64,000 nt of DNA from contig JBEPVF010000003.1 in the NCBI GenBank assembly GCA_041691135.1, forward strand, positions 1 to 64,000. The letters are read 5' to 3'. This DNA comes from Candidatus Peribacteria bacterium (lineage in GTDB: Bacteria > Patescibacteriota > Gracilibacteria > Peribacterales > Peribacteraceae). Shown here piece by piece: positions 13,189 to 16,657 of this stretch. A program made the position numbers and the translations under genes. The first letter of the stretch is position 1, and every line of letters starts with the position of its first letter. The notes below the pieces were generated by a model, which saw only the letters and a program-made list of their open reading frames with translations, was not told where the DNA came from and ran no database searches.

Positions 13189-13776
13189 ATGATCCTGTCC
13201 GATCGTGATATCAAAAAGGCGCTCGAAGCTGGCCGCGTTAAAATCGATAGGCCGGCAAGTGACTACCTGCCCCATATCCATGCCTCGAGCATGGACATGC
13301 GACTCGGCAGTACATTCAAGTTGTATGAGCACAGCAAATTTGCCGTTCTGGACCCCAAGCGGCCCGAAACGTTCCATGGACTGATGCGGACGATCGTAGT
13401 TGCCGAAGGCGAGTCGTATATGGTGCAGCCGGGGGAGTTTGTGTTGGGTGTGACGCAGGAAACAATCACATTGCCGGATGATCTGGTGGCGCGGGTGGAA
13501 GGGCGCAGTTCACTTGGTCGACTTGGCATTATCGTTCACTCAACCGCAGGGTTCGTGGACCCGGGTTTCTCGGGCACCATCACGCTCGAGATCAGCAATC
13601 TGAACCGCATGCCGGTGGCGTTGTATCCAGGCATGCGCATCTGCCAATTGGCCTTCGAAGTGATGTCGAGCCCGGCCGATATGCCGTACAATATGAAGCC
13701 GCACAGCAAATACCAGAATCAGGTGTTACCGGAGGAAAGCAGGCTGTCGAGCGATCCGGAGTTCGTAAAGGCCTGA
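13189..13776 (+). CDS. dcd: dCTP deaminase
   Basis: MILSDRDI, EGRSSLGRLG, TAGFVDPGFSGTITLE, GMRICQL, KYQNQ. Confidence 0.96.
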   Translation: MILSDRDIKKALEAGRVKIDRPASDYLPHIHASSMDMRLGSTFKLYEHSKFAVLDPKRPETFHGLMRTIVVAEGESYMVQPGEFVLGVTQETITLPDDLVARVEGRSSLGRLGIIVHSTAGFVDPGFSGTITLEISNLNRMPVALYPGMRICQLAFEVMSSPADMPYNMKPHSKYQNQVLPEESRLSSDPEFVKA

Positions 13777-13824
13777 TAAGGGGATGACTCCGGCATACGT
13801 TTCTATTACCATTCACTCCCGCTT

Positions 13825-13853
13825 GGACGATTATCGGCCCAGGCCGATGGTTA
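13825..13853 (+). repeat. tRNA-Val 5' fragment copy 1 with hairpin substitution
   Basis: GGACGATTA-TCGGCCCAGGCCGA-TGGTTA versus tRNA GGACGATTA-GCTCAGC-TGGTTA. Confidence 0.8.
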
Positions 13854-13883
13854 CAGACTAGGACTCATCTTTTACTCTCACAT

Positions 13884-13915
13884 GGACGATTATCCGCCAC
13901 AGGCGGATGGTTAGA
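13884..13915 (+). repeat. tRNA-Val 5' fragment copy 2 with hairpin substitution
   Basis: GGACGATTA-TCCGCCACAGGCGGA-TGGTTAGA. Confidence 0.8.
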
Positions 13916-13941
13916 CCCTCAGATCTCTCTCATTCTTACTT

Positions 13942-14018
13942 GGACGATTAGCTCAGCTGGTTAGAGCGTGCGATTCACATTCGCAAGGTCACTGGTTCGA
14001 ACCCAGTATCGTCCACCA
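13942..14018 (+). tRNA. tRNA-Val (anticodon CAC)
   Basis: Cloverleaf: GGACGAT/ATCGTCC acceptor, GCTC/GAGC D stem, TGCGA-TT-CAC-AT-TCGCA anticodon arm, ACTGG-TTCGAAC-CCAGT T arm, encoded CCA; 77 nt. Confidence 0.96.
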
Positions 14019-14037
14019 CACAATTCTCGCATCGTGT

Positions 14038-14304
14038 ATGTATAGCGTTTATGTTATTCAAAATATTCAAGGTATTCTCTATAAAGGATTTACGAAGGAT
14101 CTAAAAAAACGGATAGCACAACACAATGCTCCTGATGGTTTCAAATCCTATACTTCTAAGAGAGGTCCCTGGAAACTTGTATATGTAGAAGAGTTTCCAA
14201 CAGAACTAGAAGCAAAAAGCAGAGAAAAATTCCTTAAGTCAGGAAAGGGCAGAGATTTTTTAAAAGAAATGATTGGACGATTATCGGTCCAGGCGGATGG
14301 CTAG
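14038..14304 (+). CDS. Stand-alone GIY-YIG nuclease family protein
   Basis: YSVYVI...LYKGFTKDLKKRIAQHN...YTSKRGPWKLVYVE...AKSREKFLKSGKGR. Confidence 0.92.
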   Translation: MYSVYVIQNIQGILYKGFTKDLKKRIAQHNAPDGFKSYTSKRGPWKLVYVEEFPTELEAKSREKFLKSGKGRDFLKEMIGRLSVQADG

Positions 14305-14374
14305 AGCGTGCGATTCATCCGCCGAGGCGGACAAGGTCTCCGACTAGGCGGTTCGAACCCAGTATCGTCCACCA
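14275..14374 (+). pseudogene. Full-length tRNA-Val copy disrupted by three hairpin substitutions
   Basis: Aligns end to end with 13942-14018; 77+7+8+8=100 nt; the anticodon is destroyed. Confidence 0.85.
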
Positions 14375-14384
14375 TCAATTTTCT

Positions 14385-14894
14385 TTAGAAAATAGTTAGC
14401 CGTTTATTTAAAGGGGTAGCCATGACGCTAGCAATAGCAAACCAGGAAACCATCCATAACAGAATCCACATCGCAAACATATTTGGTACTGGCCCCCACT
14501 CTAGCCCCGCTAAACCATCAAGAACTTTTTTTATAAAATAGAGGGTTCCCATGAGCATAAAAATTCCAGTCACAACAAAAAGGAGTCGATTCCATTTTTC
14601 TGAAAAATACCGACGCAAGATTACAATAAGGAATATGAAAATTGGCAAAAAAATGGTGAATGCAAGCAGTGCTGTCACTCGATTTCCCACACCCTGATAA
14701 TACTGCACACCGAGAGCGTAATTTCCAATTTCTTGTAAGCTCATAATCATTTTATCCCCCCTTTGTCCTGCAAGTCCTGGCGTTGGCACTTGAAACGGTG
14801 AAACATACAATCGAGAAGCTATGAAATATATCGCACATAAACCAAGTATTATTGCAATGAGGCTGGCGGCTTTTATTGTGTGAGATTTAGTCAT
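14385..14894 (-). CDS. Hypothetical membrane protein (about 4 TM), AT-rich
   Basis: 169-aa ORF with four hydrophobic segments. Confidence 0.7.
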   Translation of the reverse strand: MTKSHTIKAASLIAIILGLCAIYFIASRLYVSPFQVPTPGLAGQRGDKMIMSLQEIGNYALGVQYYQGVGNRVTALLAFTIFLPIFIFLIVILRRYFSEKWNRLLFVVTGIFMLMGTLYFIKKVLDGLAGLEWGPVPNMFAMWILLWMVSWFAIASVMATPLNKRLTIF

Positions 14895-14952
14895 AGAGAA
14901 GAAGTAATACTGTGTGGATTATCCTGCTTATACAGTTTAGCAGGTACAACTG

Positions 14953-15100
14953 CACCATGGCACGGTCGTGTCATTTTTCGAAAAAGACACCCTGCGCAAT
15001 CAGGCGTAAGCTGTTTGCTAGAGCAGAGAAAAGACACTTTCCAATTTTGAATACGTTTCATTAATCTCAGTTCGAACGTCGTACAGTTTCGTCCACCAAG
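14953..15100 (+). repeat. 148-bp degenerate direct repeat A ending in the tRNA-Val 3' end (att-like)
   Basis: CACCATGGCAC...CGTGTCATTTT...CAGGCG.AAG...CGAACGTC...CAGTTTCGTCCACCAAG; same length and anchors as 15971-16118. Confidence 0.75.
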
Positions 15101-15141
15101 AACTTGCAAAATATGAGATATGTATTTAATGTACATTTCAT

Positions 15142-15957
15142 ATGAAACCGCGCAGCCCAGAGTTTGGTAATTGGGTGAGAACTACTAGAGAGGAAAACAG
15201 GCTTTCGCAGCAAGATCTAGCTAAATTAGCGAGTATCAGTCAACAAACAGTATCGAAAATTGAACGTACGGGAATTGTCCCTCCCGATGTCTCAATCGAG
15301 CGCATTTGTATGGCCTTGCATAGGGAGATGTCTGAAGGGTTGGCAATAGTGAACAGACAGACAACCAATCAATTATTTTTACTATGTGAAGGTTCACGAC
15401 GAGAATTCATACAGCGCCTTAGCCAACACGCTAGCAAAAATGATAAAGTAGGTGTCTTCTTCTTGGAAGAAGGAGGCCCGTTAGATCCTCAAAAATTCGC
15501 AATTGATTGGCATCGTCGAGTACTTGATACGTCACCAAAAATATATTCTTCTCTATTGTTTCGTTTCCCGGAGGACTCGATCAATTTCAATTTATACTGG
15601 CATGAAATGCAAAGATTAGTTCCTGGAAGTGAGAACCGTTTCAGGGGTTTTAATCGTCATCCAAATTTTGTGGAAGATAGAAATAGAGCTTTACCAGTTG
15701 CAAGAGAACAGATTCTCATGACTACCCCCCAAGGTCCAGACCTCTACTCTCATTTTTTGGACCCAGATGCTTTTGACGCAGAACTTCATCTTAAGACGCC
15801 TCATTTTGAGGCAAAATCCAAAGCTATGAAATTACAACCTTCAACTCCAGAAAGAGCAACAAAAGCTTCCCAGTATCTGGGTTTAACTTCTTTTACAGAA
15901 GTTGATCCTGAGCGATGGATTCATATAAATCCGTTGGCTAGTGGCAACGAAAAATAA
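15142..15957 (+). CDS. XRE-family HTH protein with unknown C-terminal domain
   Basis: FGNWVRTTREENRLSQQDLAKLASISQQTVSKIERTG. Confidence 0.82.
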   Translation: MKPRSPEFGNWVRTTREENRLSQQDLAKLASISQQTVSKIERTGIVPPDVSIERICMALHREMSEGLAIVNRQTTNQLFLLCEGSRREFIQRLSQHASKNDKVGVFFLEEGGPLDPQKFAIDWHRRVLDTSPKIYSSLLFRFPEDSINFNLYWHEMQRLVPGSENRFRGFNRHPNFVEDRNRALPVAREQILMTTPQGPDLYSHFLDPDAFDAELHLKTPHFEAKSKAMKLQPSTPERATKASQYLGLTSFTEVDPERWIHINPLASGNEK

Positions 15958-15970
15958 TTGAACGTCAAGT

Positions 15971-16118
15971 CACCATGGCACTCACGTGTCATTTTCGCGA
16001 AAAGCTGACATGTAAAAGCAGGCGCAAGTCGCTACCTGTAGGAACGAAAGTGAACCCTTCAATCGCTGACAGGTATCGCAAACCTCATTCCGAACGTCAT
16101 GCAGTATCGTCCACCAAG
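15971..16118 (+). repeat. 148-bp degenerate direct repeat B ending in the tRNA-Val 3' end (att-like)
   Basis: Ends CAGTATCGTCCACCA, identical to the last 15 nt of tRNA-Val. Confidence 0.75.
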
Positions 16119-16121
16119 TCA

Positions 16122-16151
16122 TTGACATGTATATTAAAAAATGTCTAAAAT
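16122..16151 (+). promoter_or_regulatory. Sigma70-type promoter
   Basis: TTGACA-N18-TAAAAT, 6 nt before the ATG at 16158. Confidence 0.6.
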
Positions 16152-16157
16152 TTATTT

Positions 16158-16562
16158 ATGGGAAAGTTTGAACTTAAAATTGGGCGACTTGATATCGATC
16201 CCCGGCGTTTAGAATTCACTGGGAGTGATCCATACGATGCTGTTCATAAATTTATTGTCGAGCATGCAGACGCTGCAATGCTTCTTTTTGCATGTGCTGA
16301 TGCGAGTAGACACTGGGAGGTAAGAAACCATTTTGGAAAGAGGGATGATGATCTTGTAGCGGGCGGAAGTTTGTACACGAGAGATGAAAAACTGATTCTG
16401 GCTGATTATTCGGGAGATTATGGCGCTCTTCCCCCAGAGGAGGCTCAAGTATTGGCAGAGCTGACATTGCAACACCTGGCTGAAAATTTCGGCCTTAACC
16501 TTAAAAAGGCTTCAGGCATACCTTCCAATCGAGGTTCAGTGAATCCAATGTGGTCTAAATAA
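16158..16562 (+). CDS. Hypothetical protein
   Basis: 134-aa ORF with its own promoter. Confidence 0.65.
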   Translation: MGKFELKIGRLDIDPRRLEFTGSDPYDAVHKFIVEHADAAMLLFACADASRHWEVRNHFGKRDDDLVAGGSLYTRDEKLILADYSGDYGALPPEEAQVLAELTLQHLAENFGLNLKKASGIPSNRGSVNPMWSK

Positions 16563-16657
16563 CTATTAGATGTAAATCATTTGCTGCAATAGAGCAAAAG
16601 CACGTTCCATTTGGGCATATGTCTTCCTGATTTCCTGTCTGTCTTCTTCAAATAAAT

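Follow-up and report, generated by a model that had tools for sequence, protein, structure and literature searches.

The first 64,000 nucleotides (nt) of contig JBEPVF010000003.1 (forward strand; assembly GCA_041691135.1), hereafter the window, come from a Candidatus Peribacteria bacterium of the family Peribacteraceae. The window contains a transfer RNA (tRNA) gene, tRNA-Val(CAC), followed by a small gene for a GIY-YIG nuclease and by a disabled copy of the same tRNA gene, which we call T*. In T* and in two tRNA fragments upstream, segments of the tRNA are replaced by short palindromes. This anatomy is conserved, and consists of a live tRNA, a gap of a few to about 20 nt, an open reading frame (ORF) of about 85 amino acids (aa) that encodes only a GIY-YIG domain of the UPF0213/SLX1-like kind, and a dead copy of the same tRNA. 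The ORF runs into T* and frequently takes the D-loop TAG as its stop codon, and additional dead 5' fragments are common upstream of the live tRNA. The gene is linked to tRNA genes, its target is duplicated, the DNA has the character of an insertion, the arrangement occurs at varied tRNA species and in distant hosts, and the pairing of the palindromes is conserved. We suggest, with a probability of roughly 45%, that a widespread, homing-like GIY-YIG element, which moves horizontally and duplicates the tRNA that it targets, has one of its copies here, and that the palindromes mark or disable the dead copies.

The locus is composed of the following features.

13809 to 13867, plus strand: upstream unit 1, about 16 nt of leader-like sequence followed by a 5' fragment of tRNA-Val (from 13825) whose D-arm segment is replaced (repeat search, alignment).
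13834 to 13847, plus strand: palindrome TCGGCC-CA-GGCCGA replacing GCTCAGC (alignment; DNA fold -5.5 kcal/mol, z -2.96).
13868 to 13925, plus strand: upstream unit 2, leader-like sequence and a tRNA-Val 5' fragment (from 13884) (alignment, repeat search).
13893 to 13907, plus strand: palindrome TCCGCC-ACA-GGCGGA replacing GCTCAGC (pattern scan; DNA fold -7.3 kcal/mol, z -5.0).
13942 to 14018, plus strand: intact tRNA-Val(CAC), single copy genome-wide (ARAGORN; Rfam tRNA 68.6 bits).
14038 to 14304, plus strand: ORF of the 88-aa domain-only GIY-YIG (UPF0213-like) nuclease (ORF list, Pfam).
14275 to 14374, plus strand: T*, disabled full-length tRNA-Val copy with three substituted segments (alignment, repeat search).
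14284 to 14297, plus strand: decayed D-arm palindrome TCGGTC-CA-GGCGGA in T* (alignment; fold -1.0 kcal/mol, no stronger than shuffles).
14318 to 14331, plus strand: palindrome TCCGCC-GA-GGCGGA in T* replacing CATTCG, the 3' side of the anticodon loop and stem (alignment, pattern; fold -4.7 kcal/mol, z -2.7).
14339 to 14352, plus strand: decayed palindrome replacing the 5' strand of the T stem in T* (alignment; fold -1.5 kcal/mol, no stronger than shuffles).

A preliminary description of this DNA had reported a tRNA-Val, a GIY-YIG gene and a tRNA copy with three replaced segments, and ARAGORN, Rfam, Pfam and alignment confirm all of these. The gap between the tRNA gene and the ORF is 19 nt. 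The last 10 codons of the ORF and its stop, the D-loop TAG at 14302-14304, fall within T*, so that the ORF does draw its tail from the modified copy as had been proposed. T* retains the first 9 nt of tRNA-Val, a 20-nt block at 95% identity and the final 25 nt at 100%. It is not called as a tRNA by ARAGORN, nor by Rfam in the window at E<=1, and none of its counterparts in 12 related loci matches Rfam tRNA at the gathering score. Folded as RNA, T* gives a z score of -1.15. Its anticodon-side module (14318 to 14331) recurs at the same position in two relatives, G003 and G077, and in Met-type loci, and its T-stem palindrome has a perfect counterpart in G007. Rfam showed no intron in this region of the window or in the 12 related loci. 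A group I intron carrying a GIY-YIG ORF within a tRNA gene finds no support, since the tRNAs are uninterrupted and Rfam finds no intron.

The two upstream fragments (13825 and 13884) carry TCGGCCCAGGCCGA and TCCGCCACAGGCGGA, which are separated by a compensatory C-G/G-C swap. Alignment thus bears out the earlier claim that GCTCAGC is replaced in both and that the change preserves the stem. The leader-like sequence of about 16 nt before each fragment resembles the leader of tRNA-Val itself. The units are spaced 59 and 58 nt in the repeat search; TRF gave no tandem array in 13600-14500, and the 59-nt tandem is a result of the repeat search only. Five palindromes replace tRNA segments at the locus, the number given in the preliminary description, but only three are stable as DNA hairpins, and the D-arm and T-arm palindromes of T* have decayed. 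The strict form TCCGCC-N2-4-GGCGGA occurs twice in the window, against 0.01 expected, and three times in the entire genome (1.74 Mb, 35 contigs).

The genome is a metagenome bin and the exact sequence is present in one sample only, which would fit an artefact of assembly as the source of the copies. We find this scarcely credible. A Logan contig of run X1 (6395 nt), probably from the source sample, shows 0 differences over 13600-14700, so that a second assembler, on reads that are not independent, gave the same 1.1 kb, and the architecture recurs in dozens of other genomes and contigs. The locus stretch is held by run X1 only; the RNA run X23 and other runs cover just tRNA-Val itself.

The 88-aa protein matches the Pfam GIY-YIG family PF01541 with 63.3 bits (cut-off 22.6; E 2.7e-17; residues 1-70), and it matches no NCBIfam model. 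Its nearest solved structures are the UPF0213 proteins BH0048/EF2693 (1zg2, E 3e-7; 1ywl, E 1e-5) and SLX1 (7wme, E 3e-4). The length of 88 aa (within about 80-110 aa), the presence of the catalytic domain only and the similarity to BH0048/EF2693 are those of a UPF0213-type protein. In an alignment of 17 sequences Y5, Y15, G17, R25, H29 and E63 are invariant and N30 is conserved in at least 90%. We take the conserved Tyr, Tyr/Gly, Arg, His/Asn and Glu positions to be the GIY-YIG active site, and the nuclease is probably active.

GIY genes of this kind lie beside tRNA genes throughout the family and the phylum. The genome of the window has six GIY paralogues, four of which (those at Val-CAC, Pro-TGG, Gly-CCC and Leu-CAG) follow a tRNA on the same strand at a distance of 19-255 nt; the fifth is 1.36 kb downstream of tRNA-Met and the sixth is near a contig end. 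Only about 5 of the 50 tRNAs of this genome have a GIY gene. Matches were found in 78 of 81 genomes of the family (sizes of relatives 0.7-1.9 Mb), with at most 12 per genome. Among the 29 best loci outside the window's own genome, the GIY gene is 6-377 nt downstream of a same-strand tRNA in 25 and just upstream of a tRNA in three, and the remaining one, at a contig start, has no tRNA. At the level of the phylum, a profile search with 17 sequences detected the gene in 147 of 201 genomes, and a same-strand tRNA was within 500 nt in 24 of 29 fetched loci, often abutting the ORF.

A short and weakly supported tree of 33 GIY proteins places the protein of the window in a group found only at Val and Ile tRNAs. 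Another, large group has near-identical proteins at differing tRNA species, such as Leu-TAA, Arg-TCG and Met-CAT within a single supported clade. Because near-identical proteins adjoin different tRNA species, the GIY gene moves between tRNA loci. Many GIY matches in the family and the phylum are interrupted by in-frame stops, although some of those flagged in the window's protein group are the natural stop; such degenerate copies are expected of a cycle of invasion and decay. The context would also fit a free-standing homing endonuclease gene, as the gene lies beside a conserved host gene, occupied and empty sites both occur, and one metagenome locus (L356) and one relative (G055) hold the tRNA and T* without the ORF.

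A structured sequence, TTCGACTCG-[hairpin]-CTCGCTCATGG, recurs after many tRNAs (L006:1323-1500; L005 after tRNA-Met; L021:1578-1650; L116). It occupies the 120-380 nt that separate tRNA and GIY gene in the large GIY group, and for this reason it may be the cassette end of that group.

The GIY ORF and the modified tRNA copy are a conserved unit. In the protein group of the window, whose members sit at Val and Ile tRNAs, a palindrome-bearing T* adjoins the ORF in 7/7 cases. As at the locus of the window, TC[CG]GCC-[CT]A-GGC[CG]GA stands in place of the D-arm segment of T* in G042, G060 and G066. The substitution affects the 3' side of the anticodon arm in G013, G008 and G075 and, in G013, the T loop as well, and G060 has longer structured inserts. 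In G003, which belongs to the same genus, GIY is absent at the locus and a T* remnant has the same palindrome at the same anticodon-side position. The acceptor stem of this remnant differs from that of the resident tRNA, and it was therefore not copied from the resident gene. In G055 the tRNA is followed after 55 nt by T*, with no gene in between. Palindrome-bearing units also form tandem arrays, with five identical 44-nt 5' units before tRNA-Val(GAC) in G062 (L154:1501-1713), four 63-nt 3' units after tRNA-Val(CAC) in G007 (L008:1578-1860) and three units in G013. In a record titled Candidatus Peribacteria, a D-arm-palindrome fragment is 36 nt upstream of tRNA-Ala.

These copies also show another palindrome module that is portable. 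A 20-nt perfect palindrome, CCTGCCTGCCGGCAGGCAGG, or a close variant of it, is inserted into the anticodon loop in an Ile copy (G042) and into the T loop in Phe/Ile fragments (Phe in G048). Palindromes of this type were seen at L037 (G042), L059 (G048), L117 and L369.

The cassette downstream of tRNA-Val is an insertion. Its GC content is 0.41 from 14019 on, compared with about 0.53 elsewhere in the genome, and it is missing from the syntenic dcd-tRNA-Val site of two relatives. G021 has neither the cassette nor the fragments at this site and G015 has the 5' fragment only, which supplies the empty site that the preliminary description had hoped to define by comparison with relatives. The inserted DNA continues beyond T* as an array of cassettes.

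14019 to 16116, no strand: three small low-GC cassettes in a row, all of which close with the tRNA-Val 3' end (GC content, repeat search).
14385 to 14894, minus strand: ORF of cassette 2, 169 aa, no family match (ORF list, family searches).
14945 to 15098, plus strand: conserved cassette end of about 150 nt, closing in a degenerate tRNA-Val T loop and 3' end (alignment).
15142 to 15957, plus strand: ORF of cassette 3, 271 aa, with a helix-turn-helix of XRE type at the N-terminus (family searches).
15960 to 16116, plus strand: second copy of the conserved cassette end of about 150 nt (alignment).

Cassette 1 is the GIY ORF with T*. The cassettes end with the tRNA-Val 3' end at 14360-14374, 15084-15098 and 16102-16116, so that, together with the gene itself, direct copies of these 15 nt start at 14004, 14360, 15084 (1 mismatch) and 16102. 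The end of about 150 nt that is common to cassettes 2 and 3 recurs in 7/80 other genomes of the family; in G021 it shares a contig with tRNA-Val, 13 kb downstream of that gene. Low GC persists at 16117-16650, a stretch that has a 134-aa ORF (16158-16562, no family) and lacks the terminal repeat.

Such an array might consist of ordinary tandem islands driven by an integrase into the tRNA-Val 3' end, with the tRNA pieces as attachment-site (att) remnants and the GIY gene as passive cargo. The four direct 15-nt copies that bound three low-GC cassettes would agree with this, as would the recurrence of the cassette end in the family, G021 included, and integration-derived tRNA fragments are a known source of partial tRNA genes (PMC9897764). 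However, a search that covered tyrosine recombinases (PF00589) only found none in the island of the window, the three matches of the genome being elsewhere, and none between tRNA-Val and the cassette end in G021 or around the ends in G097 and G048. Almost every genome has the gene 6-22 nt from the tRNA, and neither this nor its entry into T* would be expected of passive cargo. Remnants of att sites also leave the upstream 5' fragments and the palindromic substitutions unexplained. We regard this explanation as improbable.

The palindromes themselves are more widely distributed than the GIY unit. The form TC[CG]GCC-N2-4-GGC[CG]GA occurs 541 times in the 81 family genomes, compared with 105 for the reversed control. 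In three genomes 12/38 sites are within about 500 nt of a tRNA, where chance was estimated at 4-5%. Some of these sites are D-arm substitutions, and others form the core of a nested hairpin that interrupts upstream fragments between tRNA positions 12 and 13. Still others belong to a recurrent element that directly follows tRNA 3' ends, or are free-standing. A search with TATC-SSSS-N2-4-SSSS-GATGG, in which complementarity was not imposed, gave 51 matches against 1 in the reversed control. The arms are perfect in 35 of the 51 (hand count; chance 1 in 16) and belong to three stem types; in the MAFFT alignment the palindromes with 2-nt and 4-nt loops are out of register. All 17 palindromic loci that were fetched (17/17; Val, Ile, Asp and Ala) are tRNA-derived, with an acceptor strand matching the neighbouring tRNA, compared with 0/13 of the non-palindromic ones. 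Within the family, pairing rather than sequence is conserved, via compensatory changes. Simple homologous transfer of the palindrome would be unlikely, because the flanking acceptor strands differ between tRNA species. These results indicate that the palindromes are specific and are under selection in the dead copies.

Short GC-rich palindromes with conserved pairing are also a property of repetitive extragenic palindromic (REP) sequences and their REP-associated tyrosine transposases (RAYT). The palindromes could be REP-like sequences that are spread by Y1 (IS200/RAYT-type) transposases and gather in dispensable tRNA-derived DNA. The genome of the window (G000) does have four Y1_Tnp genes (L162-L165: G000:C8:12924, C11:30505, C5:61831, C1:268373), each with its own inverted GC-rich hairpins on both sides, and larger nested hairpins with a TCCGCC core are free-standing in relatives. 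However, the TC[CG]GCC type flanks 0/24 Y1_Tnp loci in five genomes, a sixth (G044) being without a match, and G000 has only four palindromes of this type, all at the present locus. The same tRNA segments are replaced across tRNAs and hosts, which is not random insertion. The palindromes here are few and confined to tRNA-derived DNA, and they differ from the hairpins beside the Y1 genes; we consider an origin from REP-like sequences very improbable.

Other hairpin-bearing sequences were observed in these genomes. In the genome of the window, the fragments upstream of other tRNAs are copies of the tRNA's own first 12-20 nt and lie 59-100 nt upstream (e.g. L006 G000:C1:90574-93774; L005 G000:C3:117435-120647). 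Five of them (Ala-CGC, Ile-TAT, Ala-GGC, Met-CAT and Asp-GTC) run on as GCTCAGYTGG-CCTAGC and then a 5-6-bp GC hairpin, and others have a nested hairpin between positions 12 and 13. Elements of about 100 nt, whose ends are inverted (CCACGTAAAG...CACGTGGCA), begin immediately at the CCA of tRNA-Arg(CCT) and tRNA-Ser(GGA) (G000:C4:130487-130610, G000:C9:35477-35600), and their start motif follows about 8 tRNAs. In G088 (L122-L125) a repeat family with a TCCGCC-loop-GGCGGA core and the flanks ...AACGCGAACTCG and CTCAAACAGCGCGTTTTT has at least four copies away from tRNAs.

The same palindrome occurs in tRNA copies outside the family. A record of Ferruginibacter sp. has a full tRNA-Met T* 33 nt upstream of the intact gene, in which TCCGCC...GGCGGA replaces the D arm and also the 3' side of the anticodon arm. 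The Ferruginibacter genome (3.1-Mb, about 38% GC) has 7 palindromes and the control has 0, and 4/7 are in tRNA-Met-derived fragments. In metagenome contigs the exact D-arm palindrome with the D loop was found at 15 loci, nine of them at tRNA-Met (38-42% GC) and six at Val/Ile. Two tRNA-Met loci (L359 and L360) have the order T* fragments, tRNA-Met, terminator-like hairpin, GIY ORF and the 3' part of T* with the same palindrome, and in L360 the stop codon of the GIY ORF is the D-loop TAG. L356 has the same layout minus the ORF. The low-GC tRNA-Met contigs probably belong to Bacteroidota, judging by their likeness to the Ferruginibacter record. The D-arm palindrome with the D loop was not found in viral contigs. 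In a scan of assembled-genome contigs, 122/123 of the matches listed look like chance occurrences in GC-rich genomes, and the scan is silent on the overall distribution because its pattern was too loose.

If the locus is a homing-like element, the nuclease would cut a tRNA gene without the element. Repair would then be templated by the element-bearing copy, with the conserved tRNA sequence serving as homology arms, and would leave a single live tRNA and dead duplicates. One-ended repair may account for the tandem partial copies. The 14-17-nt palindromes TC[CG]GCC-loop-GGC[CG]GA take the place of a single strand of the D, anticodon or T stem, and do so only in the dead copies. We take the palindromes to be functional marks of dead copies, which would block tRNA folding and break homology with the live gene, and the nuclease may in addition bind or avoid them. 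The preliminary description had likewise proposed a mobile or homing-like unit. The tRNA linkage, the insertion and the conserved unit of ORF and copy uphold this proposal, but the palindromes are not confined to GIY loci.

Several further observations weigh against such an element. GIY is absent within 1.5 kb at 12/17 D-arm-palindrome loci of the family, and the counts of GIY genes and palindromes per genome are uncorrelated (rho 0.08, p 0.47, n=81; relatives are not independent). The Ferruginibacter T* is set among housekeeping genes with no GIY in 8 kb, and the metagenome palindrome loci L356 and L363 have no GIY. In cis, then, the palindromes are not tied to the nuclease gene. At least 10 other tRNAs of the window's own genome have hairpin-bearing 5' fragments upstream, mostly without a nearby GIY, and the largest GIY group (20/33 rows; Met/Leu/Arg/Glu/Trp/Pro/Gly tRNAs) is usually without T*. 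PF01541 is the sole domain above cut-off in the 88-aa protein, and a DNA-binding domain was not found in it. Characterised homing GIY-YIG enzymes (I-TevI, Seg) carry a DNA-binding module that reads a long asymmetric target, and the Seg proteins are >200 aa with DNA-binding domains, compared with 88 aa and the catalytic domain only here. The exact locus, as noted above, is present in a single sample. Simple target-site immunity fails to explain the stability of the element, because the live tRNA in the occupied site keeps its native sequence. One specific palindrome would not be expected from random decay or from immunity mutations. The identical arms in two distant host groups demand a mechanism that a homing model does not supply.

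Many of these observations would be expected if two independent things met at the locus. T* and the fragments would then be a separate class of tRNA-derived elements with a function of their own (leader, processing signal, decoy or protein-binding site), and GIY would be an unrelated selfish gene that prefers tRNA units, one subfamily of which has settled in the spacer between tRNA and T*. In addition to the palindrome loci without GIY, the uncorrelated counts, the fragments at other tRNAs and the setting of the Ferruginibacter T*, this is consistent with the compensatory pairing, with the tRNA-T* pair without a gene in G055, and with the finding that 11/17 D-arm-palindrome loci are directly upstream of the intact cognate tRNA, where the palindrome of single units starts 32-58 nt before the tRNA. 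However, GIY adjoins the palindromic locus in 5/17 cases in the family and in 5/8 metagenome loci with enough flank, compared with about 5/50 of the tRNAs in the window's own genome. The full triad also recurs, with the same palindrome arms, at the low-GC tRNA-Met contigs. The decay of 2/3 palindromes in T* argues against strong selection on that copy. A sigma-70 scan of 13700-14450 found no promoter-like site, and a promoter-supplying role for the fragments is therefore unsupported. On balance we think it rather doubtful that the two parts are independent.

The nuclease and the palindromes could instead be two parts of one system. A dimeric domain-only GIY-YIG protein would recognise TC[CG]GCC-loop-GGC[CG]GA as a duplex or cruciform and break tRNA-derived DNA at a fixed distance, which would drive both tRNA duplication and the rewriting of stem strands. 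The palindromes would then be actively written, portable cis-sites of a phylum-crossing element. We consider such a system unlikely.

The homing-like reading can be compared with known systems. UPF0213 (BH0048, EF2693) and SLX1 are the closest solved sequences to the 88-aa protein and have the same single-domain size. To our knowledge, neither a function nor a tRNA linkage has been described for bacterial UPF0213 proteins. SLX1 is a structure-specific endonuclease that acts with a partner on branched DNA. In organelles, free-standing GIY-YIG and LAGLIDADG ORFs insert at gene ends and partly duplicate the host gene, and in fungal mitochondria such rearrangements go along with clusters of GC-rich palindromes or double-hairpin elements. 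These systems share with the present locus a selfish nuclease ORF that abuts or is fused to a host gene, a duplicated gene piece beside it and GC-rich palindromes, but their targets are protein genes. We know of no report that organellar palindromes replace defined stem strands of a tRNA copy.

In phage T4, the Seg genes (SegB in the tRNA gene cluster) are likewise GIY-YIG genes among or beside tRNA genes, and, according to PMC2330249, they are thought to spread by cutting the allele without the gene, which is copied in at repair. T4 is not known to have duplicated, palindrome-substituted tRNA copies, and the hosts here are cellular genomes and not phages. The att fragments of integrative elements (PMC9897764) share the direct repeats of the tRNA 3' end that bound compositionally foreign DNA. 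Here, however, an integrase (PF00589) was not found, and the fragments are also 5', tandem and palindrome-substituted. The literature covered (including PMC4736985 and PMC9897764; subscription journals and supplements excluded) gives no account of a GIY-YIG/tRNA linkage in these bacteria or of palindrome-substituted tRNA copies.

Our data point to an undescribed kind of mobile element that dwells in tRNA genes. Genes for tRNAs are classic landing sites of mobile DNA, and the agents known to act there are integrases. Across a phylum of small-genome bacteria we find instead a minimal nuclease gene, from a family without an assigned function, that nearly always sits within tRNA transcription units and travels with dead copies of the host tRNA that are edited in a stereotyped fashion. 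Even on a cautious reading, annotators should expect many palindrome-bearing tRNA look-alikes in these genomes. If the nuclease and the palindromes cooperate, this would give a function to UPF0213-type proteins and would reveal a very small structure-directed or palindrome-directed nuclease of possible practical use. It would also be a new route for the duplication and replacement of tRNA genes and for their exchange between distant bacteria.

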